Assembly (NCBI RefSeq): GCF_036507355.1
Contig: NZ_AP027877.1
DNA length: 64,000 nucleotides
Source of the DNA: Escherichia coli
GTDB taxonomy: Bacteria; Pseudomonadota; Gammaproteobacteria; Enterobacterales; Enterobacteriaceae
Strand: one strand, 5' to 3'
This document shows, one piece after another, positions 30,320-59,049 of the stretch. The notes below the pieces were generated by a model. That model made no database searches, was not told where the DNA came from, and worked only from the letters and a program-made list of their open reading frames with translations. Both the position numbers and the translations under genes were made by a program. Within the stretch, counting starts at the first letter, position 1, and each line of letters starts with the position of its first letter.

Positions 30320-30481
30320 TCAGTATCTCCATACAATCTATTAATCATTTAAATGATAGGTCTAATCATGATTTTGGGTCTAATCAACTTAATGATCAAT
30401 ATCTATAGTGATATCACCAACCGTTGAATCGCCACGGGTTTAACAGACACCTCAGAGTCATTTAAGATGGCTTAAAGAGAG

Positions 30482-30766: not shown

Positions 30767-30822
30767 GGTACGCCTTTATCCGTGACAACACCTGTTGCTG
30801 GCCTGTTCGCCTGCTCTGTCGG

Positions 30823-31635
30823 GTGCTGGATGTTCATCCCAGTGGTTTTTACGCCTGGCTTCAGCAGCCGCATTCACAACGCCATCAGGCAGACCTGAGG
30901 CTGACAGGGCAGATTAAACAGTTCTGGCTGGAATCGGGATGCGTCTATGGTTATCGCAAAATCCATCTGGATCTGCGGGACAGCGGGCAACAGTGCGGAG
31001 TGAACAGAGTCTGGCGACTGATGAAACGTGTCGGGATAAAGGCTCAGGTCGGATACCGGAGCCCGCGGGCACGTAAAGGCGAGGCCAGTATCGTGTCGCC
31101 CAACAGGCTCCAGCGACAGTTCAATCCGGATGCTCCGGATAAGCGTTGGGTAACGGACATAACCTACATCAGGACCCACGAAGGCTGGCTGTATCTTGCC
31201 GTGGTTGTTGATCTGTTCTCACGCAAAATTATCGGCTGGTCCATGCAATCCCGGATGACAAAGGACATTGTCCTGAACGCACTGCTGATGGCTGTATGGC
31301 GCCGTAATCCCCAAAAACAGGTGCTGGTTCATTCGGATCAGGGCAGTCAGTACACAAGCCATGAGTGGCAGTCGTTCCTGAAATCACACGGCCTGGATGG
31401 CAGCATGAGCCGTCGCGGTAACTGCCATGATAATGCGGTTGCAGAAAGCTTTTTCCAGTTGTTGAAACGCGAACGGATAAAGAAAAAGATCTACGGAACG
31501 CGGGAAGAAGCCCGCAGCGATATTTTTGATTACATCGAAATGTTTTATAACAGTAAGCGTCGGCATGGTTCCAGCGATCAGATGTCACCGACAGAATATG
31601 AAAACCAGTATTATCAACGGCTCGGAAGTGTCTAG
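30823..31635 (+). CDS. IS3-family transposase OrfB (DDE integrase)
   Basis: 270 aa with DDE residues in WVTDITY...HSDQGSQYTS...CHDNAVAESFF context. Confidence 0.85.
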   Translation: MLDVHPSGFYAWLQQPHSQRHQADLRLTGQIKQFWLESGCVYGYRKIHLDLRDSGQQCGVNRVWRLMKRVGIKAQVGYRSPRARKGEASIVSPNRLQRQFNPDAPDKRWVTDITYIRTHEGWLYLAVVVDLFSRKIIGWSMQSRMTKDIVLNALLMAVWRRNPQKQVLVHSDQGSQYTSHEWQSFLKSHGLDGSMSRRGNCHDNAVAESFFQLLKRERIKKKIYGTREEARSDIFDYIEMFYNSKRRHGSSDQMSPTEYENQYYQRLGSV

Positions 31636-31653
31636 ATTATCCGTGGCGATTCA

Positions 31654-34491: not shown

Positions 34492-36033
34492 TTACTCTTC
34501 GTTCTTCTTCTGACTCAGACCATATTCCCGCAACTTATTGGCAATCGCGGTATGTGAAACGCCGAGACGTTTTGCCAGTTTGCGCGTGCTGGGATAATTG
34601 CGATAAAGCTGGGTTAATACCGAGCGTTCAAAACGGCTGGTGATTTCGTCCAGCGAACCTTCCATCGCATCTTCGCCCACGGCTACCGTTGCGGCGTCAT
34701 AATCCGGCAACAAAATATCCTGTGGACACAGCTCATAACCGTCCAGTTGTGTCAGTGCGCGATAGATAGCGTTCTTTAACTGTCGCACATTTCCCGGCCA
34801 CGCATAACGCGTAAGTACAGTATTCAGGTCAGCGGCCAGTTTCGGACGCGGCACGCCCTGCTCGTCGGCAAAGCGGGCGACGAACAGCTCAGTTAACGGC
34901 ATGATGTCCTGCGGACAGTCACGTAGCGGCGGCAGATTGAGCGTCAACACGTTCAGACGATAATAGAGATCTTCACGGAACATGCCTTTTTGCACCAGTT
35001 CGACCAGATTCTTCTGCGTAGCGCAAATCACCCGCACATCGACATGCACCTCATGGTCTTCGCCAACCCGACGGAAAGTGCCATCATTAAGAAAACGCAG
35101 TAATTTCGCCTGCATCCGTGGTGACATCTCACCTATTTCATCCAACAGCACCGAACCACCGTTCGCCTGCTCAAAGAATCCTTTCTTCCCTTCCGGAGCA
35201 TGACCAAACAGCTCACTCTCGACCGCATCTTCCGGTATAGACGCACAGTTCAGCGCCAGGTAAGGTTTGCTCGCTCTTGGGCTTGCCTGATGGCAGGCGT
35301 AGGCAAAAAGATCTTTACCTGTACCTGTGTCACCCGTAATCAGCAGCGGCGCGCTTAGCATCGCCAGTTTCTGCGCCTGTTCGACAACGTGCTTCATTTT
35401 CGGGCTGACGGCGACAATTTGACTGAAGGCGCTGACGTCCTGGGCGGCGACATTTTGCAACTGGCGGCCCATACGAATCGTTGATCGCAACATCACCACC
35501 GCACCGGTCAGGACGTGTTGATCATTTTCATCCTGAAGATAAACAGGCGTAATCTCCATCAGGAAATTCTGCCCATTAATAACGACATGCTCGTTATGCG
35601 AATCTTGCGGTTCGCTTTCCAGCCAACGTAAAAAATTAAAGCCGTTAATCAATTGTGCGGCGGTATGGTTGCGCAGGCGATCCAATTTTTGCCCAAAAAG
35701 CTGACAGCTCGCCGGGTTCGCCATATCCACTTTGCTTTTCATATCGACAGAGAGCACAGGTTCAGGCAACGCCTCCAGTAACGCGCTCAACGCCAGATGC
35801 TCACGTTCGGAAGGCATCCACGGGACAGTACGCACATCGGTAACACCTGCAATACGGCGTATTTCGGCCATCAGACTGCTGAAACTCTCAAACTCCAGTT
35901 CAGCAAAATTGAGGTAGATTCGCCCAATGGGGTCAATCTCAATACCGCGTAAATCAATGCCTCTTAGCACGAGTAGATCGAGTAATTCGCGGGTCAGACC
36001 GAGTCGGTCTTCACAAAAGACTTCCAGACGCAT
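34492..36033 (-). CDS. tyrR: transcriptional regulator TyrR
   Basis: 513 aa: ACT/PAS N-domain, sigma54-interaction-type AAA+ core (GDTGTGKD), C-terminal HTH. Confidence 0.9.
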   Translation of the reverse strand: MRLEVFCEDRLGLTRELLDLLVLRGIDLRGIEIDPIGRIYLNFAELEFESFSSLMAEIRRIAGVTDVRTVPWMPSEREHLALSALLEALPEPVLSVDMKSKVDMANPASCQLFGQKLDRLRNHTAAQLINGFNFLRWLESEPQDSHNEHVVINGQNFLMEITPVYLQDENDQHVLTGAVVMLRSTIRMGRQLQNVAAQDVSAFSQIVAVSPKMKHVVEQAQKLAMLSAPLLITGDTGTGKDLFAYACHQASPRASKPYLALNCASIPEDAVESELFGHAPEGKKGFFEQANGGSVLLDEIGEMSPRMQAKLLRFLNDGTFRRVGEDHEVHVDVRVICATQKNLVELVQKGMFREDLYYRLNVLTLNLPPLRDCPQDIMPLTELFVARFADEQGVPRPKLAADLNTVLTRYAWPGNVRQLKNAIYRALTQLDGYELCPQDILLPDYDAATVAVGEDAMEGSLDEITSRFERSVLTQLYRNYPSTRKLAKRLGVSHTAIANKLREYGLSQKKNEE

Positions 36034-36180
36034 GGGAACCTTCACCTGAAAAAAGAACAATTAATATGATGATATGACACTATTTGGATAGCAGGAAGGT
36101 TTCTGTCAACAATCATTGACACAAAGACGGAAAAACGGGCACTTCGGCGTAAAGATATCCGGTCAGCACCCGATATTGCA

Positions 36181-37242
36181 TTATTTTTCGCTGGGCGTTT
36201 TGCCTTTTTGCAGCGTTTCTTTCACCTGACCGATAAGCTGACGACGGAAATCCCCAAGGCGAGGTTTGTCATCGTCAATCCACGGCAGCGGGCGGCAAAG
36301 CTCCATAGCTTTAATCCCGAGTCGTGCCGTCAGAAGTCCAGCACCAATTCCCTGAGCTGCGCGGGTAGACAAACGAGCAGCGAGATCTTGCGACATCCAG
36401 TCCATCCCCACTTCGCGCACCAGTTCGCTGGCTCCGGCGAAAGCGATATTCAGCAATACCAGCTTGAACAGGCGCAAACGGCTGTAATACCCCAGTTCAA
36501 TGCCATACAGCGTGGCGATGCGATTAATCAAACGCAGATTGCGCCAGGCGATAAATGCCATATCCACCAGCGCCAGCGGGCTGACCGCAATCATCAACGT
36601 TGATTCCGCTGCCGAACGGCTGATTTCGCGCCGCGCCTGGGCATCTAAAACTGGCTGGACCAAATGCGCATACAAACTGACCACTTCACGGTCGTTTTGC
36701 GTTTCATGGATTGAGGCATACCAGCGTTGCAGCGCCGGATGTGACTGATCGATGCCCGCCTGCTGCGCCAGTTTTTCGCAAAATGCGCGGCCTTTACCCG
36801 TGCCGTGGCTGTGCAACAAATCGCGCGCTTCGTCGCGTTCATGGGCGCGCTGTCGCAAGCGCCATAAGCGCCGCCACTCTGTTACCACAGAACCTACGCC
36901 AGCGCCGATAATCAATGCCCCAGCGGCACATCCACCCAGCGCCACCCAGTCCTGAGTTTGCCAGGCATTCATTGTCCATTGTACCCCCTGCCCGACAACG
37001 CTTGCGCCAAACAGAGCCAAGCCGCCCATCACCATTTTGCGCCACAGGCTGCGTTTCGGACGTAACGCTGCGTCCATTACCGCTTCGACTTGCCCCTCTT
37101 CTTCCTGCGCTTCGTCGAGCGTGGCCGGGGCAAAATTTTGCGCCTGATTTTCGTCAAAGGTCTGCTGCGCCCTGAATTTTGGATTCTGTTCGACCTCCAG
37201 CGGACCGTCGAAATCAATACGTGGTTTTAACGGTTCGGTCAT
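36181..37242 (-). CDS. ycjF: inner membrane protein YcjF (UPF0283)
   Basis: 353 aa with TM segments; translationally coupled to ycjX. Confidence 0.8.
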
Positions 37243-38636
37243 CGCAATTTATCTCCTATTAAAAATTCCAGCGCGGCATCAAGACGAATATGCGGCAGCG
37301 GTTTGTCGACATCCATCACCTGCGGGCGAAATGCCTCAAACTGGAAGCCTTGCTTATCCCAGAACGCCTGACCAGGCAAACGTGCGGGAACTTCGCCAGG
37401 ATAAACAGTGAGCGGTGCGCCATCGCTAAGTCGATTACCGCGCAGCGCCGGGATTTTCTCACCGTTAACATCAATAATGCCACTGGTGGTCGCCTGAACT
37501 GACGCCAGCCCCAGGCAATCCATGCTGATCCCTTCGAACGCCGCATTTTGCCAGGCATCCTGAATTAGTTGTTGCAGCAATGAAACCATATTGGCGTGCT
37601 GATCGATGGTCACATGGTCCGCTTTAGTGGCAGCAAACAATAGCTTATCGATAACCGGCGAAAACAAACGCCTGAACAGGGTACGCTGCCCATAGTGGAA
37701 ACTTTGCATCAGCTGCGTCAGCGCCAGACGCATATCATTAAATGCCTGTGGCCCACTGTTGAGAGGTTGCAGGCAATCCACCAGCACAATCTGGCGGTCA
37801 AAGCGCAGAAAATGATTCTTATAGAACCCCTTCACCACTTTCTCGCAGTAATAATTAAACCGCTCGCGCTGCATTCCGGCATTGGTATGCTTATCGGCCT
37901 GCGCGAGTTTGGACTCGCCCCAGGCATCGACATCCGGCCACGGGAAGAATTGCAGCGCGGGCGCACCTGCCATATCTCCTGGCAAGACAAAGCGCCCTGG
38001 CTGAATAAAGTGCAGCCCCTGCTGTTTACAGTAGTGGAGATAATCAGTCCAGGCGGCGGCAATGTCCGCCAGCCGGTTTTCGTCGGCAGGCGCTAGCGGG
38101 TCAAGTCCTTCGCACATCATTCGCCATTTCGCCGACCATTCCCCGCGCTGACCATTGAGTAAGCCCGTCATCTGGCGCGACCAGCTTAAATAGTCCTGCG
38201 CCAGCATCGGCAGGTCGAGCAACCATTCGCCGGGATAATCTACAATTTCCAGATACAGCGTGGAGGTATCCTTAAAGTGGCGCAGCAGCGAATCGTTCGA
38301 TTTATAGCGTAGCGCCAGGCGAATTTCGCTGACGCCGCGCGTTGGCGTCGGCCAGGCGGGAGGATCGCCATACAGCTGCGCCAACCCTTCGTCGTAGGTA
38401 AAACGCGGAATGCCAAAATCGCGCTGAGGAATGCGTTTTACGCCCAGCAGGCGCTCTTCACGCACCGCACTTAACAGCGGCAAGCGTGCTCCGGCATGAA
38501 TATTAAGCAACTGATTAACCATCGCGGTGATAAATGCTGTTTTGCCGCTGCGGCTAAGTCCGGTTACAGCGAGGCGCAGATGTCTGTCGACACCCCGATT
38601 CACCAGCGCATTGAGTTCATTTTTAAGTCGCTTCAT
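37239..38636 (-). CDS. ycjX: P-loop NTPase YcjX
   Basis: 465 aa with Walker [11 protein letters not shown]. Confidence 0.8.
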
Positions 38637-38791
38637 TGCTGTCCTGTGCTGCTCTGAAGACCAGAAAAAAAATCATTCGTAAGGATATGAATGTGGGGGC
38701 CAGGCCATTGATTATCAACTGCCCGTGTTGTCATCGACGGGCGAACTCCATAAGATGTGCAGCATTCACGTTCGGACGGAGTTCCTGACCT

Positions 38792-39790
38792 ATGTCCCCT
38801 ACTATTTATGATATTGCCAGGGTTGCAGGCGTATCAAAATCCACCGTATCACGCGTGCTGAATAAGCAAACTAATATCTCCCCGGAAGCGCGCGAAAAAG
38901 TGTTACGGGCCATTGAAGAATTACAGTATCAACCAAACAAGCTGGCCCGCGCGCTGACCTCTTCGGGTTTTGATGCCATTATGGTGATTTCTACCCGTTC
39001 GACCAAAACTACGGCGGGTAATCCGTTTTTCTCAGAAGTTCTACATGCCATCACCGCCAAAGCGGAAGAAGAAGGTTTCGACGTGATATTACAAACGTCG
39101 CACAACCTGGCAGAAGACTTACAAAAATGTGAAAGCAAAATTAAGCAGAAAATGATTAAAGGCATTATTATGCTAAGTTCGCCAGCGGATGAGTCATTTT
39201 TTGCCCAACTTGATAAATACGATATTCCTGTCGTGGTGATTGGCAAAGTTGAAGGTCAATATGCCCATGTTTATTCTGTCGATACCGATAATTTTGGTGA
39301 CAGCATTGCGCTAACCGATGCATTAATTGAGAATGGACATAAAAACATTGCCTGCCTTCATGCACCGCTTGATGTCCATGTTTCAGTGGATCGGGTAAAT
39401 GGTTATAAGCAAAGTCTGTCCGCGCATAATATTGCAGTGCGTGATGAATGGATTGTTGACGGCGGTTATACCCATGAAACAGCACTGCAAGCCGCGAGAG
39501 AATTATTAAGCCAGTCACCGTTGCCTGAGGCGGTGTTTGCCACTGACAGCCTGAAATTAATGAGCATTTATCGTGCGGCAGCAGAGAAAAATATTGCTAT
39601 TCCGCAGCAGTTAGCGGTGGTGGGTTATAGCAATGAAACGCTGTCATTTATTTTAACGCCTGCACCAGGCGGCATCGATGTTCCGACGCAGGAGTTAGGG
39701 CAACAAAGCTGCGAGTTATTATTCCGCTTAATTTCCGGAAAACCGTCGCCACAAAATATTACCGTTGCCACGCATATGACGCTGAAATAA
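38792..39790 (+). CDS. ycjW: LacI-family transcriptional regulator YcjW
   Basis: 332 aa, N-terminal [24 protein letters not shown]. Confidence 0.85.
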
Positions 39791-39814
39791 ATACCAGCTA
39801 CCTTGCCTGAATGC

Positions 39815-39890
39815 CGGATGCGATGCTAGCGCATCTTATCCGGCCTACATTTATAGATCGGATAAAGTACTCGCGCCGCATCCGGCAATT
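39815..39890. repeat. REP elements
   Basis: gccggatgcgatgctagcgcatcttatccggcctac and cgcgccgcatccggcaat palindromic units. Confidence 0.7.
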
Positions 39891-39900
39891 TAGCCCATTA

Positions 39901-40806
39901 TCAGAACGAGTAATTTACGCCGACACCTGCATAATGGAATTTATCACTGTCTCCTTCGTCGTGATCCTGCCACTCAAACGCGTATTCCAGCGAAACGGAA
40001 AGACCATTCTGGAAATCATAACCGTAAAATAAACCCACACGGTTAAAATCATGGCCTTCACGTTCAATATCATCCTGCCAGTCCCAGTTACTCCAGCGAT
40101 CCAGCCCAATGCGCGTATACGGCGTCACCGAGTGGTTGCCGAGCGTCAGCGGCAAATAGGCGCGAATTTCTTGCGTGGAAAACTCACCGTTATTGCGGCT
40201 GTCGTCCATATTGAAGCCGCGCTCGAGATAATAGTTCACTCGCAAAGCAACCGTTTCGTTGAAGGTATATTGCAGACCTGTTTCCGTTTCGACACGGGTA
40301 TCAGCGTAACCGGTCGTGTTCAAATCGTTGGCAAATTTATACATCGACAACCAACCGTTGAAACGTAAATCGTCAGTCAGTTTCACATCCCAATCTGGCG
40401 CGATTTTCCAGCGCTGCATATTCGCCGTGTCTTTACCCGGTTCATCAACGTAGTGATAACCATAATTACGGAAACCGCCGGTCAGGCCGAAACTGAAATC
40501 ATCGCTTTCGAGGAACTGATAATGCACCTCCAGCTCCGGGCGATCAAACCACGTTCCACGTTTACCCGCGCTATAATCTACCGGCCCTTCCTGATAATAG
40601 GCCAAAGAAATTCTCCACGGCCCGTTGGCAGCATTAAAATAGACAGAAGGCTCCGCCAGCCCATTCATATCTTCGCCATAACCCTCGACGTTTTCTATTT
40701 CGTACATCGCGCCGATATTAAAGTGCCAGTCGTTTCTTTCCTCGGCCTGTGCGCAGGCCATTCCCGCACACATCACCAGTGCGGTACAGGGTAATAACTT
40801 TTTCAT
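39901..40806 (-). CDS. ompG: outer membrane porin OmpG
   Basis: 301 aa beta-barrel with signal peptide, C-terminal VNYSF. Confidence 0.9.
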   Translation of the reverse strand: MKKLLPCTALVMCAGMACAQAEERNDWHFNIGAMYEIENVEGYGEDMNGLAEPSVYFNAANGPWRISLAYYQEGPVDYSAGKRGTWFDRPELEVHYQFLESDDFSFGLTGGFRNYGYHYVDEPGKDTANMQRWKIAPDWDVKLTDDLRFNGWLSMYKFANDLNTTGYADTRVETETGLQYTFNETVALRVNYYLERGFNMDDSRNNGEFSTQEIRAYLPLTLGNHSVTPYTRIGLDRWSNWDWQDDIEREGHDFNRVGLFYGYDFQNGLSVSLEYAFEWQDHDEGDSDKFHYAGVGVNYSF

Positions 40807-40850
40807 TATTGTTCCTTGTATTATCCTGGGGGAATGCCTTCCCCCTGTAT

Positions 40851-41933
40851 TTAGCGAATTGCTATTTCCGTTTCTGCATCAAAGAAATGACATTTAGTCA
40901 TATCAAAATGAATAGTGATATTTTCTCCTGCATGATAATCATTTAACGCACCAGCACGGACCACTAACTCGTGCCCCCCAACCGTGGTGTAGAGCATAAA
41001 TTCCGCACCGGTTAATTCTGCCACGCTAATTTTGGCGGAAATGTTATTTTCCTCTTGCGCGTCCGGATGAATATCTTCCGGGCGTATTCCCATCACGATG
41101 GGCTTATGCAAACTTTCCTGTGTTTTCAGAACCGCTAATTTCTCTTCGGGAATGGTTAATTTAAGCGTTTCCGTAACGAATTTATCGCCATCGATCGTGC
41201 CGCGAATAAAATTCATCGCTGGTGAGCCAATAAATCCGGCAACAAACATATTCGCGGGTTGGTTATAAACCGTTTTCGGCGCACCTACTTGTTGAACAAT
41301 CCCGTCTTTCATAATCACAATCCGCGTCGCCATGGTCATCGCTTCGGTCTGATCGTGGGTCACGTAGATCATGGTGGTGTTCAGTTTCTGATGCAGCTTG
41401 CTGATCTCTGCGCGCATTTGTACGCGCAGCTTGGCATCAAGGTTAGAGAGCGGTTCATCCATTAAAAACACGCCCGCTTCGCGCACAATCGCCCGCCCGA
41501 GCGCTACACGCTGGCGTTACCCGCCGGAAAGCGCGCCCGGCTTGCGTTTCAGGTACTCACGCAGGCCGAGAATTTGCGCCGCCCAGTTCACCCGCTCATC
41601 AATCACCTCTTTGGCGATTTTTTGCATCTTCAGGCCAAACGCCATGTTGTCGTAGACCGCCATATGCGGATACAGCGCGTAGTTCTGAAACACCATCGCG
41701 ATATTGCGTGCTTTGGCTGGAACGTCATTCATTCGTTTGCCGTCGATCAACAGATCGCCGCCGCTGATCTCCTCAAGCCCGGCAATCATGCGCAGGGTGG
41801 TCGATTTACCGCAGCCTGACGGACCGACAAACACGATGAACTCTTTATCGGCAATTTCCAGGTTGAAGTCCTTCACCACATGCACCTGGTTATCGTAGAT
41901 TTTTTGAATATGTTGTAACGAAAGCTGAGCCAT
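40851..41933 (-). pseudogene. ycjV: ABC transporter ATP-binding protein YcjV with nonsense codon in the signature motif
   Basis: two ORFs (138 aa + 211 aa); at ~41500 the frame reads LSGG-stop-RQRVALGRAI, i.e. TAA in place of the Q of LSGGQ. Confidence 0.85.
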
Positions 41934-41946
41934 GTTGATTCCTTTG

Positions 41947-44802
41947 CTATACGTTTTGCCAGAAGGCCGATAACCGCGACCAGGTCAGGGAGTCCGTTGA
42001 AGGCAATAGTAATTGCGCCCCGGTTAAGCCCGCGCCGATCCCCACCGAGCGCATACCGCTGGCGTTAATGGCGTCAATGCCCGCCTGCGCATCTTCAATG
42101 CCGATACATGCCTGCGGCGGCACGCCCAGCCCGGCACAAGCAGCGAGAAAGATTTCCGGATCCGGTTTCGAGTTTTTAAGTTGGGAAGCATCCGCGCAGA
42201 AGGTGAAAAACTCGCGCAGCTCCAGCGCCGCTAAAATCGTCGGCGCATTCAGGGAGACGGAAGCCAGCCCTACCGGAATCTGCTGTGCACGGAGCTCTGC
42301 CAGCAAATTGCGAATACCGGGCAGCACAGCATTAACCGTCAGCTCGCGCAGTGAGTGGACGTAGAGCAGATTTTTGCGATACGCCAGTTGCGCCCGCTCC
42401 TGCGAGTTAAAGTCGCCCTCTTTGCCCCCGTATTGCAGAATGCGCCGCAGAGACTCATCGCGGCTAATCCCTTTTAGGGATTCGTTAAACTGCGCATCAA
42501 TGCTGATGCCAATTTCAGCGGCAATCTGCTGCCACGCCTGGAAATGCAGATGCGTGGTAGCGGTCCCATTGAAGGGCAAAATAAAATCAACCAAACAGAA
42601 AACAGATTCTTCAGCCACGGATATAAGCTGCCCGTTCAAACGCAGTGAAACGGGCGCAGAAGTTCGAATCGCAATACGCTGCGCGTCGAGCGTGACCTGT
42701 AATTCGCAGCCCTGCCAGAACAGAGGGAAAGACAACTGTTGCCACTGCTCCGGTAACGCCGGATTGAGATGTAATTCACCGTCACGCACGCTCACCCCGG
42801 CAAAACCCTGAATTGCCCCCAGCCAGATAGCGCCAGTTGCGGCAGCGTGGATACCATCATCACAACTATGCGGATCAGCACCAAGATCGATTTCAGTCCC
42901 CTCGCGCCAGAACTGATAACTTTGGGTCAGCAGGCCACAGCGTGCGGCAACAATGCCGTGGATTGCTTTACTTAATGACGAGTCGTGAATAGTGCGCGGT
43001 TCATAAAATTGCAGATTGGCAAGACACGATACCGCTGAGAACTGCTCCGGCAGCATGTAATTGAGCATCACCACATCAGCTTGTTTGAGGATCTGCATCT
43101 CGTTCACTTCTGCGCGTGAATAATCCAGCAGAATGGTTTGCTTCCCCGCCGCCGCTTTGTATTTAGCCAGATTAATCGCCGGCTTAGCCATAAACGAATC
43201 ATCCTGCGGCAAAACGCCATCGGGCTGCGTTTCTGGCATCCATAGCTCTTTGAGGAACATTTCGGCCCGATGGATAAACGCATCGTCGCTACAGCCGAAC
43301 TGGCGGGCAATATTCAGCGCCTGTTGAACGTTGTAGCGGGCCATATAGCTGGTGTATGCATTATTATTGACATGTTCGGTATATTCGTCTGGTCCAATAA
43401 CATCATGAATTTCCAGACGATCGTTAACTCTCACCGCGCGGCTAATCCAGAACTTTGCCGTCTCCAGAAGTAGCGCCATGCCTTCATGAGCAATGAAACT
43501 TTCATCCCCCGTTGTCTGCCAGTATTGAATAACCGCCCAGGCGATATCGGCGACCAGATGATGTTCCGCCTGCGCCGAGGCCACTTTTTGCCGCAGCCCG
43601 GTGCGAATGTTAATGGCGGCAAATTCCGGCGTCTCTTCTTCGCCGCTGCGCGCGCTTTCCCACGGAAATAGCGCGCCCTGCCAGCCATTGCGTCGCGCTT
43701 TCTCCTGCGCGCCAGGCAAGTTGTGCCAGCAATAACGCAGTAAACTTCGGGCAACCGTCGGATCGCTAAACAGATGAAACGGTAGCAAAAATACTTCTGT
43801 ATCCCAGAAAACGTGGCCTTTGTAGCCTTCGCCGGTTAAGCCTTTTGCCGCAATACTGCTGCGCTCGTCGTGGGCGGGCGTCATGATGCGCAGATGATAA
43901 AGTGCATAATCTAACGCTTGCTGATCGTGCGCATCGCCGCCGTTTACCGTGATACGACGTTTCTGCCACAACTGACGCCAGTTTTCTGTTGATGCTGCAA
44001 GAAGTTGGTCGTAACTCTGCTGCGCACACATTTCAAGCTGGCGAAGCGACGCACTGCCCCACTCGTCTAAAGCAGCTTGCCTGTCATCCCGCCAGTCGAT
44101 CCACACCCGTTTTTGCAACGTCACTGTCTCGCCTGCATGAAGCTGCGCACTGGTATGTTGCAGCAAACGGCGCTCTTTGGCGGTATAGCATTGCTGCACA
44201 TCACCGCTCACCTTACAGCAACAGCTGATGGCCACATCACTGCGTCCATCCTGGGTGGTGTAGATCCCCTGCATCAGATGCTGACCAAACACCCGCACCT
44301 GGGTTTCGTCGAGATGCTGGCGACCGTGGTTGGTTTGCGTGGCGTCGATACCTGTTGAAATCAGCACTGACGCGACGGCGTCCAGTGGCGTAATAGTGAT
44401 TTCCAGCGCAATGAGCGGCAGTTGGTCTGCCGAAACAAAGCGACGGCTGGCGATGGTGTAACCTGCGCCGTTGCTGGTACGCCAGACAACGTTGCGGCGT
44501 AATTCGCCACTGGCAAAGTCAAGCTCACGCTGCCAGGCTTCGTGGGATAACGAGAAAACCTCACCATTTATGGCAATCTCCATCCCCAAGATATCAGGCA
44601 GGTTCACCAGTTCGTTGATTTCACCTTTACCCGCCCGATGATACAGCCCCGCCAGATACATTCCTCGCGTCTGGCGCGTGTAATCTTCTTCATGGCTGGC
44701 GCGAAGCCCAAGATAGCCGTTCCCCTGCGCCATCAGCGATGCATACTTGTTCAGGGTATGCTGGCTGAAATGGGGTTCTGATAACGTTACTGGCCTGGTC
44801 AT
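41947..44802 (-). CDS. ycjT: single 951-aa ORF combining a GH65 kojibiose phosphorylase-like region (YcjT) with a HAD beta-phosphoglucomutase-like region (YcjU)
   Basis: continuous frame; C-terminal ~200 aa ([18 protein letters not shown]...SAFWQNV) is HAD/beta-PGM-like but has no DxDG motif upstream in any frame. Confidence 0.7.
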
Positions 44803-45674
44803 AATTCCACACGCGTCCCTGTTTCTGCGGATTGATATAACGCCGCCACCAGTTGCTGGATGATGTACCCCTGCTCGGCGTCGGCTATCATCACGGGCTT
44901 GCCCTGTACGTGATTGATAAAGGCTTCCATGCTGCGCAAATGGCGGTTGTCGTCTGCCATTTCCCGTTGCATCAGCGTCATTAACTCACCGTTGTTATCG
45001 GTGTAGATATGTGCTGGAAACAGCGTCGCACCGGCTTTATCACCACAAAAGCTGACGTTCATAATCGACTGTTCGCGGATGTTGAGTGCAAATGACGTTT
45101 CCAGCCACAGAATGCCGATGTCGATCAGCGGGCCACCACCCTGCAGTTCTTTATTGGTAAAGACGCCCCAGCCGGGAACGCCGCAGCGACGCAGGGCGCG
45201 GGCGGTGGTAACGTAAATCTCTCCCAAAACGCCGTTGGTCACCTGTTCGCGCAGCTGTTGCGTATCGAGCGCAAAACGATGGTGAAAGTCGTAGGCCAGC
45301 ACCTTGCCCTGTTTGCGCGCGATATCGCACATTTCCCGCGCCTGTTCTGGCGTCATGGCGGGCGGTTTTTCGCACATCACATGGCAGCCCGCTTCCAGTG
45401 CCATCAGGGTATGTTCGTAATGAAAACGGTTAGGTGAGCAGACGCTAACCACATCAGGTTTCACCGCCAGCAGCATGGCCTGCGGATCGTCCCACACGGA
45501 TGCATTACCGTATTTATCTGCCAGCGCCTGCGCCTGGGAAAGGCAGCTGTCACAGACAGCCACCAGTTCCAGATCGTTGCGGGTGCAGTAGTACGAAGCA
45601 TGAACCTTATCCGCCACCTGGCCTGCGCCTATTATCGCGACCCGCAGCGGAGAGCTTGTCATTGCACTTTTCAC
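44799..45674 (-). CDS. ycjS: Gfo/Idh/MocA-family oxidoreductase YcjS
   Basis: 291 aa with N-terminal Rossmann motif [11 protein letters not shown]. Confidence 0.75.
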
Positions 45675-45683
45675 AAAGACCTC

Positions 45684-46472
45684 TTAGCAGGTACGCAACC
45701 AGGCCAACGAATCACGGTACGCCTGGGCAGGATCTTCTGCCCGGATACGCCCTTCATACACCACATAACCCTGATAGTTATCGGCGCGCAGCTGTTCAAA
45801 CAGCGCGTGGAAATCGAGGGTGCCGCTGCCCGGCTGGTAACGATGGTTATCGGCAATATGCACATGACCGAGCAAGTCACGGTTGTCGTGCAGCGCCTGC
45901 GCCAGGTTATCTTCTTCGATGTTCATGTGATAGAAATCGCCGATAATCTGCACATGTTTAAGATTGTTTTCGACGATGTAACGACGAGCATCGGCGAGGG
46001 TGTTGATCATATGATCCTGATAGCGGTTTAACGGTTCGAGATACACCACGGTTCCGGTACGCGCGGCGACCTGTTCCAGTACGCGCAGGGAATCACTCAC
46101 CATTTTGCGGTCGCCGTCCAGGCTACGCGGCGAGGTCATCGGCGGTAAGCGGAAGGTAAACATGCCCCACGCTGCCGGAACGACGATACCTTTACCCCCC
46201 ACTTCTGCCAGCGCTTCGAGAATGCGTTCGATCTGCTTTAATCCATTAAGACGACGCTCTTCGATAAAGTCACCAATCCAGCCGTCATAGCCGCCGCAGG
46301 CGGTGGTCACCGGTAAACCGGTTTCTTTGATCGCCGCTTTGACTTCTTGGATGTTGTTGACCAGCAGTTTGCCGTCAATCTCAAAACCATCGAAGCCCAT
46401 CTCTTTGATATAACGAAATTTCTCGCGGATATTTTCCGGAAAGAATGCCTGATTCTGTGTGCCTATTTTCAT
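45684..46472 (-). CDS. ycjR: sugar phosphate isomerase/epimerase (TIM barrel) YcjR
   Basis: 262 aa xylose isomerase-like fold. Confidence 0.8.
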   Translation of the reverse strand: MKIGTQNQAFFPENIREKFRYIKEMGFDGFEIDGKLLVNNIQEVKAAIKETGLPVTTACGGYDGWIGDFIEERRLNGLKQIERILEALAEVGGKGIVVPAAWGMFTFRLPPMTSPRSLDGDRKMVSDSLRVLEQVAARTGTVVYLEPLNRYQDHMINTLADARRYIVENNLKHVQIIGDFYHMNIEEDNLAQALHDNRDLLGHVHIADNHRYQPGSGTLDFHALFEQLRADNYQGYVVYEGRIRAEDPAQAYRDSLAWLRTC

Positions 46473-46489
46473 TTTTTCATTCCTTTGAA

Positions 46490-47542
46490 TTAAAACGTAA
46501 CGCCCATTTTGATGCTCTGTTCCGGATGCTGATCGACATACTGCATGTAGCTTTCCGGGCTATTGACAAAGGTCACCACCGGGTCGATTAAATCTTCACA
46601 GTTGAGATAACCGTTCATCAGCAGTTCCCAGCAGGTTTCTTCAATACGCTTACGGCTCCAGCGCGGATAATCCGGGTTCGGTTCGCTGCACGCGCGGGAG
46701 AAGACAATTTTGGCGTTATTGAAATGCGCTTCGCGTCCGAGGTTGAAACCTTCGGCAAACGGTTTGGCAAACGCGACATAGGAGATGGTGCCGCCGTAAG
46801 CCAGGCCGCGCAGTGCCGATTGCAGCGCGTCGGCGTAGCCGCTGGTTTCGATAATCACATCGGCACCCTGCTTGCCGGTCAGCGTTTTGATCTCTTTCCC
46901 TACGTCAGTGCCAATGGGGTTAAGGCAGAAATCCGCGCCGTGGCGACGGGCAATATCACAGCGATGGGCGATAGGATCGACGCCAATCACCACCGAAGCG
47001 CCAGCGCGTTTCGCCAGTTGAATGGCAATTTGACCGATCGCGCCAAGCCCTACCACCACGACAAAATCCCCTACGCGCACGTTGGCATCGCGCACGCCGC
47101 TCATGGCAAACTGCGCCGGGTCGTAGCAGACGGCGTTTTTCCAGGAGCTGCCTTCCGGCATTTTGCGCAGCTTGTAGTTATTCACCGCGTTAATGATGAC
47201 CGTTTCGGAAAGCGGACCGTAGCCGCATACGCTGTCACCCACCGCGTAATCGGTAACGTCGCTGCCACATTCGATAATGTCGCCAACCACCATGTTGCCA
47301 AGTTGGAATTTGCCAAACTCAATGCCGCGCGGCGCATCTGCCGGGCGCGGGGTGAACATCTGCCATTCGCCGTTAAAGTCTTCATCAATAAACGGGCTGG
47401 CGGCGCGGAAATCGACCACTTCCGTCCCGTGCTTCGGCGCGCCGAAACGCACGCGGATCTTCACTTCATTGGCTAAAATCGCCCTGTCTTCATACTCAAC
47501 CAGCGCAGCAACACGCGGTGCTGTGGCTACTAACTTTTTCAT
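46490..47542 (-). CDS. ycjQ: zinc-type alcohol dehydrogenase YcjQ
   Basis: 350 aa MDR-family with GLGAIGQ Rossmann motif. Confidence 0.8.
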   Translation of the reverse strand: MKKLVATAPRVAALVEYEDRAILANEVKIRVRFGAPKHGTEVVDFRAASPFIDEDFNGEWQMFTPRPADAPRGIEFGKFQLGNMVVGDIIECGSDVTDYAVGDSVCGYGPLSETVIINAVNNYKLRKMPEGSSWKNAVCYDPAQFAMSGVRDANVRVGDFVVVVGLGAIGQIAIQLAKRAGASVVIGVDPIAHRCDIARRHGADFCLNPIGTDVGKEIKTLTGKQGADVIIETSGYADALQSALRGLAYGGTISYVAFAKPFAEGFNLGREAHFNNAKIVFSRACSEPNPDYPRWSRKRIEETCWELLMNGYLNCEDLIDPVVTFVNSPESYMQYVDQHPEQSIKMGVTF

Positions 47543-47572
47543 GTAAAACTCCTTGTTAAGAAACTGGCCGCT

Positions 47573-48415
47573 TTAGCCCTTCACGCCACCGGCGGTCAAA
47601 CCACTCTTAATAAAACGTTCCGAAAGCGCATACATAATCACTACCGGTAATGCGGTCACCAGCGAGGCCGCCATCATCCGTCCCCAGATGTAATCAGGCG
47701 TACTGAACAGCGCGTTCAGGCCCACCGGTAAGGTGAAATTGCTGGCGCTGGAGAGGAAAATCGACGCAAACAGATAGTCGTTCCACGCCACCATAAAGCA
47801 GTAGACGAAGACGGAGATCAGCCCGGACATCGCCAACGGCACGGTGATACGGAAGATGATTTGCAGACGGTTGAGGCCATCCATCATCGCCGCTTCTTCG
47901 ATCTCATCAGGGATGGTGTCGAAGTAACTTTTCAGCATAAACACGGCGGTGGGCAGAGTTTGCGTCACCATGGTAATGATCAGCGCCATCTCGGTGTCGT
48001 AAATGCCAAGTGCGGTGATAATTTTGAACAGCGGCACCACCAGCAAAATGCCGGAGAACATGTACACCGTGTAAAAGCTGGCGTTGATGGTCATCCGGCC
48101 TTTAAAGCGCAGGCGGGATAGCGCGTAAGCCCCGAGTATGCCGAGAAATACCGCCACCACGGAGGAAACCACCGACACCACCATGCTGTTACGGAAGTAG
48201 TCGACAAACGGGAAAATCATCGGGTTAAAAATGTCGACGTAATGCTCCAGCGTCCACTGCTGTGGCAGCAGCGTAGGATGCAGCGAGATCGCCTCTTTTG
48301 CGCTCTTGAACGAGGTCATCAGCATCACAAAAAACGGAAACAGCGTGATGATGAGAAACAGCGCCAGCCCGCAGTAAAAACCGATACGACTGAGTGTGCG
48401 TTTATTTGTTGCCAT
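47573..48415 (-). CDS. ycjP: ABC sugar transporter permease YcjP
   Basis: 280 aa with 6 TM helices and EAA-type loop. Confidence 0.8.
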   Translation of the reverse strand: MATNKRTLSRIGFYCGLALFLIITLFPFFVMLMTSFKSAKEAISLHPTLLPQQWTLEHYVDIFNPMIFPFVDYFRNSMVVSVVSSVVAVFLGILGAYALSRLRFKGRMTINASFYTVYMFSGILLVVPLFKIITALGIYDTEMALIITMVTQTLPTAVFMLKSYFDTIPDEIEEAAMMDGLNRLQIIFRITVPLAMSGLISVFVYCFMVAWNDYLFASIFLSSASNFTLPVGLNALFSTPDYIWGRMMAASLVTALPVVIMYALSERFIKSGLTAGGVKG

Positions 48416-49283
48416 TGAGGTTCACCCGTTTCCTGGTCAGCAGAATGACAGCGAAAATAATGATGAAGAGCACCACCGAGATCGCCGCCGCTTTCCCTAA
48501 GTCATTAAAGGCAAAGGCGGTTTTGTAGGGATAGACACCAAGAATATCGACCTTGGTTGTCAGCAGATAAACATCAGCGAACATGTAGAACATCCAGATG
48601 GTGCGCAGGGTCACCACCGTCGCCAGGACCGGCATAATCGCGGGCAGCGTGACGATACGAAACCGTTGCCAGGCATTAGCGCCATCCATCTCTGCCGCTT
48701 CGTACAGCGATTTGTCGATGGTCTGCAAAATCGCCAGAAACGAGATAAAGGCATACGGGAAGTAGCGCCAGATGGCGAAGAGCACCACCAGCACAAAACT
48801 ACTGCCCGGATTATCGAACCACAGCGGTGCCTGCTCATAAAGATGCAGAAGATCGACGCCGAGGTAGTTCACAATGCCGTAGCCGTTGTTGAACATGTAT
48901 TTCCAGGCGAACACCAGCGAAATAGACGGCGTTACGTAGGAGAGGATCACCAGCGAACGCGCGGTTTTGCGCAGGCGGAACTCGCGGTTGAAAAACATCG
49001 CCACTGCCAGCCCGAGCACGGTGCTGCCCGCCACCACCAACGCGGTATACCAGACCGTCATCCACAGCGAGTGCCAGAAGCCGGGATCGGAGAGAATACG
49101 CACATAGTTGCTTACCCCAACAAACGTTGACTCGATGTTGGGATTGAGCGGCAGACGTAAAAAACTGATTTCGATATTCGACACCATTGGCCACGCAACC
49201 AGACCGCCCAGCAGTAATAAGCTGGGTGCGAGAAGCAACAGCGCAAAGGGCATATCGGAACGACCTGAAAAAAGCCTGTTCAT
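48402..49283 (-). CDS. ycjO: ABC sugar transporter permease YcjO
   Basis: 293 aa MalF/G-type permease. Confidence 0.8.
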   Translation of the reverse strand: MNRLFSGRSDMPFALLLLAPSLLLLGGLVAWPMVSNIEISFLRLPLNPNIESTFVGVSNYVRILSDPGFWHSLWMTVWYTALVVAGSTVLGLAVAMFFNREFRLRKTARSLVILSYVTPSISLVFAWKYMFNNGYGIVNYLGVDLLHLYEQAPLWFDNPGSSFVLVVLFAIWRYFPYAFISFLAILQTIDKSLYEAAEMDGANAWQRFRIVTLPAIMPVLATVVTLRTIWMFYMFADVYLLTTKVDILGVYPYKTAFAFNDLGKAAAISVVLFIIIFAVILLTRKRVNLNGNK

Positions 49284-49303
49284 TGCGGACTCCTGTCCTG
49301 GGT

Positions 49304-50596
49304 TTAGTGCTGTTCGATCAGTTCATCCAGCTTTTTCTGGCTCGCTTGTAGCGTGGTAGAGAGATCGGCTTTACCCACAGTGACGTTATGCACCATGGAG
49401 CTCACCACCCCAGAACCCGTCACATCGCCCATGCGGGTAAAGTTTTTATCCCCTACTGCGCCAAAGACCTGAATATTCGGCAGTTCACCGATTAACTGAT
49501 TTGGCAGTTCACCCAGCGCCTTAATAACGTCGTTGTCTTTCCAGGTGGCAGTAGTGACAACCGCTTTGTTCACCGGCAGCGCCGCGCCTGGCGACATCAT
49601 CACCCAGTCGGCAATGTTGTCTGCCTGCTCCATAAAGGTGACAAATTTTTCTGCTGCTTCCGTTTCTTCGGTCTTTTGCCCGGCGGTAATGGTCAGCGAG
49701 GTCAACATGCCGTAGACTGCAGCGTTTTTCTCCGTTGGCACGACGAAACCGACGTTTTTCGGGTCGCCTTCTTTAATCACAGCCGGAAGGATATAGGTGG
49801 AGTAAATCGCCATCGGCGCGGTGCCGTTCATAAAGGCGTCTTTCACTTCCATGATGTCGTTAGAACCCGGCATGGTGTTGGCAGCAAGGTCGCGGTAATA
49901 GGTCAGCGCCTGCATCATCTCTGGTGTATCAAGAGTGATTTTGCCTTCGGCGTTAAAGACGTTGGCCTGGTTGGATAACGCAAACTGGGAGAAGGATTGT
50001 TCCGTCAGCACGCTTTCTGCCGTAGGCAGCGCAATACCGTATTTTTTATTCGCCGGGTCATTCAGTTTCTGTGCAACGTCCAGCAGCTGTTGCCAGTTTT
50101 TCGGCTCCTCCAGCCCCGCTTTTGCCAGCACATCTTTGCGATACCAGATGCCGCCAATCCAGGCGCTGACAGGTACACCGGTCCATGCGCTACCATCTTC
50201 GGTACGCACAATACGCAGTACGCCATCGTAAAACGCGCCTTCACCAACGTTGCTGATGACCGTGGCAACCGCTTTGCGATCGATAAGCTGCTCTTTATCC
50301 ATAACTTTGGCGTAGTCATGGCTGGTTTCGATCACTTCCGGCAGCGAGCCGCTACGTGAAAGGGTGATGACTTTAGTGTTATAAGCGTCTTCTTCCACGG
50401 GCACTTGTTTAACGGTGATACCTGGGTTTTCTTTTTCAAAACGGGCAATCAATTTGCTGATAACTGCCTGACGCTCCTGCTCCACCGAAGAATGCATAAA
50501 TTCGATGGATACATGGGTTTTATTTTCTTCTTTACAGCCTGAAATCAGGGCGCAGGAAACCAGTGCTGATAACAGCACGATTTTTGATTTAATCAT
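49304..50596 (-). CDS. ycjN: periplasmic sugar-binding protein YcjN
   Basis: 430 aa with lipoprotein-type signal (LISGC). Confidence 0.8.
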   Translation of the reverse strand: MIKSKIVLLSALVSCALISGCKEENKTHVSIEFMHSSVEQERQAVISKLIARFEKENPGITVKQVPVEEDAYNTKVITLSRSGSLPEVIETSHDYAKVMDKEQLIDRKAVATVISNVGEGAFYDGVLRIVRTEDGSAWTGVPVSAWIGGIWYRKDVLAKAGLEEPKNWQQLLDVAQKLNDPANKKYGIALPTAESVLTEQSFSQFALSNQANVFNAEGKITLDTPEMMQALTYYRDLAANTMPGSNDIMEVKDAFMNGTAPMAIYSTYILPAVIKEGDPKNVGFVVPTEKNAAVYGMLTSLTITAGQKTEETEAAEKFVTFMEQADNIADWVMMSPGAALPVNKAVVTTATWKDNDVIKALGELPNQLIGELPNIQVFGAVGDKNFTRMGDVTGSGVVSSMVHNVTVGKADLSTTLQASQKKLDELIEQH

Positions 50597-50972
50597 GAGA
50601 TGTTCCTTTTTATTTAATCCACATAACCTGCCAGGGGCGCAGCGTTATTTCATTACCCAATATATCAACTTCACTAATCAGATCCCGACCATGCAGATCA
50701 GTAATATTTACATGCTGAATATTTTCACTGACATTAAACAATCCAGTCAGACAATTACCATCAGCGTTACTTCTTTGAATACGCATTACGGATGAATTAA
50801 CCGTATCAATGGTAAAATTATTATCCGGATGAAACTCGTTATGGCTGCGACGAAGTGTAATTAAACGCGACAACTCATGATATACCGCATGCCTTAATGT
50901 AGCTTCATCGTTCAGTTGGTGATGCTGCCAACTTACTGATTTAGTGTATGATGGTGTTTTTGAGGTGCTCCA

Positions 50973-51248
50973 GTGGCTTCTGTTTCTATCAGCTGTCCCT
51001 CCTGTTCAGCTACTGACGGGGTGGTGCGTAACGGCAAAAGCACCGCCGGACATCAGCGCTATCTCTGCTCTCACTGCCGTAAAACATGGCAACTGCAGTT
51101 CACTTACACCGCTTCTCAACCCGGTACGCACCAGAAAATCATTGATATGGCCATGAATGGCGTTGGATGCCGGGCAACAGCCCGCATTATGGGCATTGGC
51201 CTCAACACGATTTTACGTCACTTAAAAAACTCAGGCCGCAGTCGGTAA
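50973..51248 (+). CDS. insA: IS1 InsA
   Basis: identical to the insA at 10432. Confidence 0.9.
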
Positions 51249-51670
51249 CCTCGCGCATACAGCCGGGCAGTGACGTCATCGTCTGCGCGGAAATGGACGA
51301 ACAGTGGGGCTATGTCGGGGCTAAATCGCGCCAGCGCTGGCTGTTTTACGCGTATGACAGGCTCCGGAAGACGGTTGTTGCGCACGTATTCGGTGAACGC
51401 ACGATGGCGACGCTGGGGCGTCTTATGAGCCTGCTGTCACCCTTTGACGTGGTGATATGGATGACGGATGGCTGGCCGCTGTATGAATCCCGCCTGAAGG
51501 GAAAGCTGCACGTAATCAGCAAGCGATATACGCAGCGAATTGAGCGGCATAACCTGAATCTGAGGCAGCACCTGGCACGGCTGGGACGGAAGTCGCTGTC
51601 GTTCTCAAAATCGGTGGAGCTGCATGACAAAGTCATCGGGCATTATCTGAACATAAAACACTATCAATAA
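51167..51670 (+). CDS. insB: IS1 InsB
   Basis: identical to the insB at 10626. Confidence 0.85.
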
Positions 51671-53276
51671 GTTGGAGTCATTACCCGTTCAGTTCTCGTG
51701 TTATCTCTTCACTGTGATATTTTTTACGGTTAATCGCACGGTTATATCCGAGTTTTTCGACACCTGCGTAATCATTACGCGAGCCCAGAATACTTTGAAT
51801 ATATATCGCTGGCACACCGGGGAAACTTAACAAAATCGCATGGGCAAGGATAAACCTGGCGCAACGTTCTTCATCGCTACTCTCGCGGCGGCTTAACGCA
51901 TCCATATAGGTGACATTTATTTCATAGGGACTGCGCGTACCGTCGGGATTATTTTTCCAGTTTACTAATGCACCTTCCTGCTGTAATGCCTCGATCAGCG
52001 CTAATATTTCGCTTTCTGGTAACAAGCCCCGCAGTGGGTTCAGCCCGATGCCATCGTGAGAGGCGAGGAAGTTAAACCAGGTCGTTTTACCGGAGGGCAA
52101 GCTCAGACTTTGCGCCCACTGGCACAGCGCCTCGACGTTCTGTTTTTGCACCGCATGTAACACCAGCGGCGGCAGCGAGAACTGGTACACCATATGCGCT
52201 TCGTCATCGCCTTCGCCAAAGTAAGCAATGTTATCTTTATGCGGAACATTCGTCTCAGTAATAATCACCGTACCTGGCGCGATGTCATCAATAATCGACC
52301 GTAACAGTTTGATAATCAGATGTGTTTTTTCCAGATGGATGCAGCTTGTTCCCGGCTCTTTCCACATAAAGCCAACGGCATCCAGACGGACATATTCTGC
52401 GCCCTTTTCCAGGTAGCACAGCAATACATCCACCATCGCCAGCAACACTTCAGGGCTACGGTAATTGAGGTCAATTTGATCGTCGCTAAAGGTGGTCCAT
52501 AAATGGCGCGTGGAATTATCATCCATTTGAAACGGCGTTAATAGCGGTAACGCACGCGGACGGGTGACGGCACTGAGATCGGTTTTCGGATCAACCGCAA
52601 TAAAGAAATCTTTAAAACCCGGAAGCTGTTGCAAATAGTTTTTAAACCATTCACTTTTTGCCGACATATGGTTGCAGACAAAATCAAACATTAAATGACT
52701 GCATTCACCGAGCTGCTGAATATCCTGCCACTCCCCCGCTTCACTGGCGACCTGATGATAATCAATTACCGAAAATCCATCATCAGATGACCATGGATAA
52801 AAAGGTAATAAATGAACATGTGAAAAAATGCTTTGCAGCCATTGGTGGTAAAACTGATTAAATGTGGGTAGTGGTTTTAAATCATTACTGTGAAATTGAT
52901 CGGCATAGGTAATTAACACGACGTCACTTTCATCCCAGTGTTTTTTACGTCGCTGTGTAATTAATCGTTTCGCACTCTCAAGACGCGTTACAAGTTTCTG
53001 TAAATGAGTTGCGGTAAATGTTCCACCGTAGATTTCGCCCAGGTAATCCGTAATTTTCTGTTTCATGTTGCCTTTCCGTGGTAGCGGTCCCATGAAACGA
53101 GAGACTACTCCGCAGAAAATAAACTGTCAATTGAGCACAAGGGTTTTAGTCACGCAGGAAATCATTTTTTACCAGGGAAAAAGCGTATTTGTGAGCTGAC
53201 GCAAATAATCTATAGGGATGTAAATAAGGTGTGACAGAAAAAAACGGCGCATAAGCGCCGCTCATGGTGAATTCTT

Positions 53277-53591
53277 TTAACCTTTGACCTTCGGCATTGC
53301 GATGTCTTTCAGGCCACCGGCGTTCTCAACGTGGGTATATCCCATCTCGCTAAGGATCTCTTTTGCCTGCCCGGACTGGCGTCCGGCATTGCAATACACT
53401 TTCACGGTGTCGTTTTTATCCGGAACGGCGGTGGCAATGCGTTCTTTCACTTCCTTCAGGGGAATATTGATGGCCCCCTGAACGTGCTCCTGCTGATACT
53501 GCTCTGGAACACGAACATCGATCCAGTGTTCAGCGGCGAAAACGGGCAGTGAAAACACCAGTGCCAGAGCAAGTAAGCCTTTTTTAAACAT
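53277..53591 (-). CDS. pspE: thiosulfate sulfurtransferase PspE (rhodanese)
   Basis: 104 aa with signal peptide and active-site Cys (YCNAGRQS). Confidence 0.9.
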   Translation of the reverse strand: MFKKGLLALALVFSLPVFAAEHWIDVRVPEQYQQEHVQGAINIPLKEVKERIATAVPDKNDTVKVYCNAGRQSGQAKEILSEMGYTHVENAGGLKDIAMPKVKG

Positions 53592-53665
53592 GTAAGCGTC
53601 CTTCTATGGATGAAAATTGCCATCCATTATACGCCTGAGATTTAACAATTTTTGCGAAACTCCCC

Positions 53666-53887
53666 TCACCTTTTATAACGCTGTGCCAGTTTATTGGCAG
53701 CCCGACTTAACAGCGGTTCCAGCGCCACAGCCAGCAACATTTTCAGCGGTCGGCGAGCAACTGATTTTATCGCCCAGCCCGCCACACCCGCCGGGCCATA
53801 GCGCAGTGCGGTAAGAAGTACCAGCTTGCCTGCTAATTTGAAACCAGGCTTCACCTTTTGCCCGGCCTGTTGCCAGCGAGTATTCAT
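53666..53887 (-). CDS. pspD: phage shock protein D
   Basis: 73 aa [25 protein letters not shown]... Confidence 0.8.
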
Positions 53888-53895
53888 AACTTTCC

Positions 53896-54255
53896 TCACA
53901 GTTGACGGAAACGGCTACGTAACGTGAATGTATCGGAAGTGACATAACGTTCCATCTCGCGTAAACGCGTTTCACTTGCCGCCAGTTCACGGTCGACTTC
54001 ATCCAGCAATTCACTGCTGGAAGGTAGCTGCTCACCAAAAGCCATGTTGTCCGGCATTGGATCAAGCGCAAATGACAAAATGATGTAAGCAACCAGGGTA
54101 AACAGCGCCAGACCGAAGAAAATCGACAGCACCACCAGGATACGCACCAGTTTTACCGGTACATCAAAATAGTTGGCAATCCCGGCGCAGACGCCACGGA
54201 CCATGCCCTGCTGTGGAATACGCCATAATTTTTTATTGAGATTAATGCCCGCCAT
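53896..54255 (-). CDS. pspC: phage shock protein C
   Basis: 119 aa with single TM helix. Confidence 0.9.
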
Positions 54256-54479
54256 TAGCGATCCCTCCAGTTCGGATGTTCTGCATCAAGAATAGATTCC
54301 AGCGCCTGAATACGTTCGCGCATCCGTTTTGCTTCATCAGCCAGTTGCGCTAATCGCTGCTGCTCACTTTGCGACAATTCACTGCGACCAGAACGATTGC
54401 TGTAATGCAGCCATAACCAGATCGGTAAAACAAACAGCACAAAAATGGTTAATGGAATAGCCAGAAATAGCGCGCTCAT
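54255..54479 (-). CDS. pspB: phage shock protein B
   Basis: 74 aa, N-terminal TM helix. Confidence 0.9.
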   Translation of the reverse strand: MSALFLAIPLTIFVLFVLPIWLWLHYSNRSGRSELSQSEQQRLAQLADEAKRMRERIQALESILDAEHPNWRDR

Positions 54480-54532
54480 AAGTACTCCTTAGACGATGAG
54501 CGGCGGCGCTTTCGGACGCCGCCTGGATGTTA

Positions 54533-55273
<741 letters not shown>

Positions 55274-55367
55274 TTATCTTTTTGATTTATAAAGATCTGA
55301 TTGAAGAATCAACAGCAACATGCCAGGATGAATTAGCGAATTACACTAACAAGTGGCGAATTTCATC

Positions 55368-56345: not shown

Positions 56346-56366
56346 CGAAGTTGGGCAATACAACTT

Positions 56367-56450: not shown

Positions 56451-56464
56451 ATTGCGTTGGGCTA

Positions 56465-57730: not shown

Positions 57731-57767
57731 GTTTCACACCTTTTGACTCTTCACTGTTAATCGGAAA

Positions 57768-59048: not shown

Positions 59049-59049
59049 T

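Follow-up and report, generated by a model that had tools for sequence, protein, structure and literature searches.

A 68-bp deletion between short direct repeats joins ycjT and ycjU in one open reading frame within the ycj operon of Escherichia coli

The analysed window is a stretch of 64,000 nucleotides from E. coli (contig NZ_AP027877.1 of assembly GCF_036507355.1). On its minus strand, 41947..44802 is occupied by a single open reading frame (ORF) of 951 amino acids plus stop. This ORF consists of YcjT residues 1–751 joined in frame to YcjU/PgmB residues 20–219. YcjT is a kojibiose phosphorylase and YcjU is a beta-phosphoglucomutase, and the two enzymes catalyze consecutive steps of one pathway (PMC11543891). 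The fused ORF, its two portions and the point where they meet are located as follows.

41947..44802, minus strand: fused ycjT'-'ycjU ORF, 951 aa plus stop (ORF list, Pfam, exact protein in NCBI)
42550..44802, minus strand: YcjT (kojibiose phosphorylase) portion, residues 1–751 of 755, QEDE lost (tblastn, residue-by-residue comparison)
41947..42549, minus strand: YcjU/PgmB remnant, residues 20–219 plus stop, motif I and strand beta-1 missing (tblastn, motif search, alignment)
42549..42559, minus strand: 68-bp deletion junction, the lone remaining repeat copy TACCACGCATC (alignment with the reference)

The original prediction had described one 951-aa frame running from a GH65 region into a HAD region without a stop, and both the ORF list and Pfam agree with this description. 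Glyco_hydro_65N (PF03636), Glyco_hydro_65m (PF03632) and Glyco_hydro_65C (PF03633) were matched at residues 9–237, 298–660 and 672–728 of the 951-aa protein. These are the GH65 N-terminal, central (alpha/alpha)6 catalytic and C-terminal domains, and all three matches are far above the curated cut-offs. The HAD match follows at residues 748–916 and runs from profile position 12 onward; intact E. coli YcjU matches the same profile from position 1–3. When reference proteins were compared with the window by tblastn, YcjT aligned over residues 1–751 with 99.2% identity, and PgmB aligned over residues 15–219 alone. The fused ORF remains open and its overlap with the ycjS stop is kept, and a protein may still be made from it.

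The original prediction also proposed that a small deletion had fused ycjT with ycjU and removed HAD motif I, with an alignment to a reference as the way to size it. Alignment with the intact operon of DSM 103246, in which ycjT lies at 3049–5316 and pgmB at 5313–5972, upheld this proposal. A single clean gap was found, and the DNA absent from the window is 68 bp long. The BLAST pieces against this reference overlap by 16 nt and give the same size (5355-5302-1+16 = 68). The deletion is bounded by the imperfect 11-bp direct repeats TACCaCGCATC and TACCgCGCATC, which match at 10 of 11 positions and have the perfect 6-bp core CGCATC in common. In the window this core is at 42549–42554, where it is touched by the segment that the original prediction had singled out (42553–42600). 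In DSM 103246 the distance from the start of repeat TACCACGCATC to the start of repeat TACCGCGCATC is 68 bp, and the window has one TACCACGCATC. At the junction the intact reference reads ...GCTACCACGCATC[AGGAGGATGAATGAAACTG...ATCACCGATACCGCGCATC]TGCATTTCC and the window reads ...GCTACCACGCATCTGCATTTCC. In longer form, DSM 103246 reads ...GGGACCGC TACCACGCATC AGGAGGATGAATGAAACTGCAAGGGGTAATTTTCGATCTGGATGGTGTAATCACCGA TACCGCGCATC TGCATTTCC... and the window reads ...GGGACCGCTACCACGCATCTGCATTTCC....

The lost DNA contains the final four codons of ycjT (QEDE) with its TGA stop, the ribosome-binding site of ycjU with the Shine-Dalgarno sequence AGGAGG, the ycjU ATG that overlaps the ycjT stop as ATGA, and ycjU codons 1–19 (M-K-L-Q-G-V-I-F-D-L-D-G-V-I-T-D-T-A-H). 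HAD motif I, D9-L-D11-G-V, with both of its aspartates, falls within these codons. Because ycjT and ycjU are in different frames and 68 bp (3n+2) were removed, the two genes are now in frame. The ancestor would have had the usual E. coli arrangement with the ATGA overlap, and the 68 bp were most likely lost between the imperfect 11-bp repeats through replication slippage or another short-homology mechanism. The repeat signature is what points to such a slipped-strand or short-homology event. Deletions between short direct repeats, which are slipped-strand and RecA-independent, have been classically described for lacI. The ycjT-ycjU deletion has the features of this type: the intact allele has a repeat at either end of the segment that was lost, and the junction keeps a single copy. 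A 180-bp deletion in ycjS, described below, takes this form as well, with an 8-bp repeat. Nothing notable differs from the lacI-type deletions; the ycjT-ycjU repeat is an imperfect one.

A variant of the ycjT 3' end was observed in other E. coli. In 115 genomes, including CFT073, Nissle 1917 and ATCC 25922, the junction probe found a 29-nt match that corresponds to window 42547–42575 at the ycjT 3' end, so ycjT ends there with ...CGCATCTG and not with ...CGCATCAG. The CGCATCTG variant extends the perfect direct repeat to 8 bp, and the same deletion might be more likely in the background of those 115 genomes.

In HAD phosphomutases, the motif I aspartate is the phospho-accepting nucleophile and the aspartate two positions further on is the general acid/base. 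E. coli YcjU (PDB 4G9B) aligns through its residues 4–216 to residues 3–216 of L. lactis beta-phosphoglucomutase (1LVH/1O08 and others), so YcjU D9 and D11 correspond to L. lactis D8 and D10. The catalytic aspartate motif had been predicted to be missing from all three frames, and this proved correct. No D.DG motif was found anywhere in the 951-aa protein, and in the two remaining frames across the junction there are stops and, again, no DxDG motif. The three-frame check and the motif search also found no overlooked start that contains DxDG. Neither a second pgmB copy nor a relocated motif-I exon was found in the 64-kb window, where tblastn gave one truncated hit alone. Of the elements expected in a functional HAD enzyme, the N-terminal motif I hhhhDxDG(T/V) is therefore lacking, and motifs II–IV are kept as GLASVS at 845, SKPDPEIF at 878 and GIEDAQAG at 901. 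Motifs II (Ser/Thr), III (Lys) and IV (acidic pair) of the remnant are identical to those of reference YcjU.

Compared with E. coli YcjU/PgmB, L. lactis beta-phosphoglucomutase and HAD subclass I in general, the remnant keeps the cap domain as well as motifs II–IV. Its residues 20–219 have at most one difference (position 210) from YcjU of DSM 103246 and O157:H7 TR01. Unlike E. coli YcjU, however, it is without the first 19 residues, which include DxDG(V/T) with the Asp nucleophile. It also has neither a start codon nor a ribosome-binding site of its own, and translation would produce it only as an extension at the C-terminus of YcjT. The core strand beta-1 of the Rossmann-like fold was removed together with D9 and D11. 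With both aspartates deleted, the beta-phosphoglucomutase is predicted to be catalytically dead, judging from what is known of the HAD family. Without the mutase, beta-glucose-1-phosphate released by kojibiose phosphorylase would not be converted to glucose-6-phosphate, and the product of phosphorolysis would thus be barred from entering glycolysis.

The distribution of the fused allele was examined in 5,426 complete RefSeq E. coli genomes by megablast, using window 41900–44850 as the query. The ycjT-pgmB region was matched in 4,993 genomes, 4,950 of which cover at least 80% of the query. In the best 30 of the 4,993 matching records, the match consists of two pieces spanning 3,019 bp, versus 2,951 in the window. 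The junction was then searched with a 44-nt probe, in which any 28-nt seed must cross the junction. No match among the 5,426 complete genomes crossed the ycjT-ycjU junction; the 115 hits are one-sided, with 29 nt on the ycjT side. The same sequence was therefore not present in intact strains, since no complete E. coli genome with separate genes has this junction. The best identity of the window to the complete genomes was 98.0% over 36000–50000 and 98.2% over 52000–64000, regions that hold the core genes ycj, psp and puu. With a best identity of only about 98.0–98.2%, the source lineage is not closely represented among these 5,426 genomes.

The fused protein is nevertheless on record outside the complete genomes. 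NCBI has two entries with exactly its 951-aa sequence, HAV8407379.1 and HBM8674078.1, each under the name "beta-phosphoglucomutase [Escherichia coli]". Among about 15 billion sequences, its cluster at 90% identity contains just one further protein, and the two derive from one and the same ORF. This second protein, BED22595.1, is 928 aa long and named "glycosyl hydrolase family 65"; it is the fused ORF called from Met24 in a record of 4,643,937 bp, and an exact-sequence look-up of this 928-aa variant gave no contig on record. The identical 951-aa protein is encoded by 7 contigs, among them those from GCA_905398585.1, GCA_021425525.1 and the run assembly SRR32181686, and the DNA of these sister contigs is 99.97–100% identical to the window.

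To place the fusion in its surroundings, every gene from pgrR to puuE was compared with the DSM 103246 proteins by translated search (tblastn). Most of the neighbours are intact, including ycjW, ompG, ycjR, ycjQ, ycjP, ycjO, ycjN and the psp genes. Four lesions gather in the ycj operon: the ycjT-ycjU deletion and the following three.

44799..45674, minus strand: ycjS with an in-frame 180-bp deletion, 291 aa versus 351 (MAFFT 180-base gap)
40851..41933, minus strand: ycjV (ABC transporter ATPase) with the nonsense mutation Q139* (ORF list, BLAST, residue comparison)
50918..51685, no strand assigned: 768-bp insertion in ycjM, taken to be IS1 (tblastn split at ycjM residues 458–460)

The ycjS deletion has its junction at an 8-bp direct repeat, CGGCATTC, at 45110–45117. 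It took away about residues 188–247 (60 codons), with the GIHMLD segment among them, and none of the 5,426 complete E. coli genomes has its junction. BLAST had suggested extra small indels in ycjQ and ycjR; the MAFFT alignment contained none except the 180-bp gap. In ycjV, CAA is changed to TAA at 41517–41519, by which the gene is split into ORFs of 138 and 211 aa; apart from Q139* it is colinear with the intact 360-aa reference. The insertion in ycjM, which we take to be IS1 from its terminal sequence GGTGATGCTGCCAACTTACTGAT, is flanked by the 9-bp target duplication CGTTCAGTT at 50909–50917 and 51686–51694. A second copy, at 10374–11144, has the same sequence (100% identity). The near-identical sister contigs of GCA_905398585.1, GCA_021425525.1 and SRR32181686 are without this insertion, and their flanks overlap by 9 bp. 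The sister assemblies have the 291-aa ycjS, the ycjV split into 138 and 211 aa and the fused ORF in common with the window, and their ycjM is an intact gene of 559 aa. Since the IS1 is lacking there, it is the most recent of the four events, and a very recent insertion.

A further IS element was noticed outside the operon. At about 30425–31653, an IS3-family element (orfA-like 94 aa, orfB-like 270 aa) replaces about 2.3 kb of DSM 103246. The replaced segment codes for a pair of alpha/beta hydrolases and includes the 5' portion of a gene for an SDR oxidoreductase, of which the window retains only residues 143–212. The arrangement suggests a deletion associated with the IS.

The ycj operon thus carries independent disabling lesions in linked genes, with two deletion junctions that are absent from the 5,426 complete genomes, as expected of a decaying operon. 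Because the ycjT-ycjU deletion is one of four lesions in one operon, it reflects decay of the whole pathway rather than selective loss of the mutase, and the pattern suggests relaxed selection on the operon. The operon also appears dispensable in the species: 433 of the 5,426 complete genomes have no match at all to ycjT-pgmB, ycjV of O157:H7 TR01 carries an independent frameshift annotation and, at 1,069 bp, falls 14 bp short of the intact gene (1,083 bp), and ycjT is split in strain ABW_A19. Reductive accumulation of pseudogenes is known from IS-rich E. coli/Shigella lineages. The likeness to them lies in a dispensable catabolic operon with several independent lesions, and in a window where IS1 occurs in two identical copies and an IS3-family element is also present. 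On the side of difference, the public records name the organism E. coli.

Indels can arise from assembly errors a priori, so the fused ORF might be a sequencing or assembly artefact of a genome whose ycjT and ycjU are in truth separate. No evidence for such an error was found, and the chance of one is negligible. The 951-aa product is present on the 7 contigs, among which are two GenBank assemblies and one Logan run assembly, and the 928-aa call of the same ORF is on a 4.64-Mb chromosome record. Moreover, a clean repeat-bounded loss of 68 bp is the signature of a biological deletion and not of a homopolymer or base-calling error. The identical protein on independent assemblies indicates that the deletion is genuine and marks a single clone. 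A genuine fusion could also be a natural, selected bifunctional enzyme of GH65 and beta-phosphoglucomutase, given that its two activities are consecutive in the pathway and that the ORF is open. This idea is scarcely credible, because HAD catalytic motif I is physically absent, the cluster at 90% identity holds nothing beyond one and the same ORF, ycjT and ycjU are separate genes in every other E. coli genome examined, and the adjoining operon genes are broken too. The GH65 review PMC11442529 does not mention "fusion" or "fused", and offers no natural GH65-beta-phosphoglucomutase fusion for comparison.

A more serious alternative is that the fusion is partly functional: the GH65 half would retain kojibiose phosphorylase activity, and the HAD remnant would be an inert C-terminal tail. 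The original prediction had left room for an intact phosphorylase. What stands of this is that all three GH65 Pfam domains are complete, that just 4 of 755 residues (QEDE) are lost and lie outside the GH65 C-domain match at 672–728, and that the GPDEY segment, presumably the holder of the GH65 catalytic acid, is conserved when set against 3WIQ, a kojibiose phosphorylase of known structure. The fusion is like E. coli YcjT, a homologue of 3WIQ, in its residues 1–751, and unlike it in the missing last four residues, the 200-aa extension and three lineage-specific, non-conservative substitutions. These are D143V, W278L and R358C, which are absent from both references; the half is otherwise unchanged. 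D143V and W278L look tolerable, since 3WIQ has Ser at position 143 and Leu at position 278. The third substitution is what makes an intact phosphorylase doubtful.

43729..43731, minus strand: YcjT codon 358, CGC->TGC (R358C) (residue comparison, structure alignments, 61-mer search)

R358 is the Arg of a Y-R pair, and in the alignments shown the four distinct GH65 sequences of solved structure (3WIQ, 7FE3, 9LB6 and 4KTP/4KTR) all conserve it. The window 61-mer around codon 358 had no perfect match among 4,480 E. coli genomes; the best hits are one base off, and relative to DSM 103246 that base is the CGC->TGC change. In addition, a 200-residue HAD fragment without its central beta-1 strand would be unlikely to fold and may destabilise the protein. 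The pathway is in any event broken both upstream and downstream, by the ycjS deletion, the ycjV nonsense mutation, the IS1 in ycjM and the lack of beta-phosphoglucomutase. A working phosphorylase half is therefore rather unlikely, and residual activity would in any case be physiologically moot. Two further ideas are very improbable, and neither has positive support. In one, the YcjT part is active and the HAD remnant without motif I, through its cap domain and the sugar-phosphate-binding motifs II–IV, serves as a non-catalytic modulator of the phosphorylase that binds beta-glucose-1-phosphate or glucose-6-phosphate; in the other, loss of ycj function was positively selected in an IS-rich clone.

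The 951-aa ORF is thus very probably a derived, lineage-specific pseudogene allele that arose by the 68-bp repeat-bounded deletion while the ycj sugar-utilisation operon was decaying as a whole in this clone. The further lesions of this decay are the 60-codon deletion in ycjS, Q139* in ycjV, R358C in YcjT and, later, the IS1 in ycjM. The genes, the enzyme families, the deletion mechanism and the pseudogenes of IS-bearing lineages are all familiar, public databases already contain the allele, and the fused pseudogene raises no new biological question. It does have a consequence for annotation: HAV8407379.1, HBM8674078.1 and BED22595.1 are named as functional proteins with no pseudogene flag, although mutase activity is predicted to be impossible. 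Taken together, the 68-bp junction, the 180-bp ycjS junction and ycjV Q139* provide a clone-specific marker. The locus also illustrates that a deletion across ATGA-coupled overlapping genes can yield a long ORF that looks deceptively intact.
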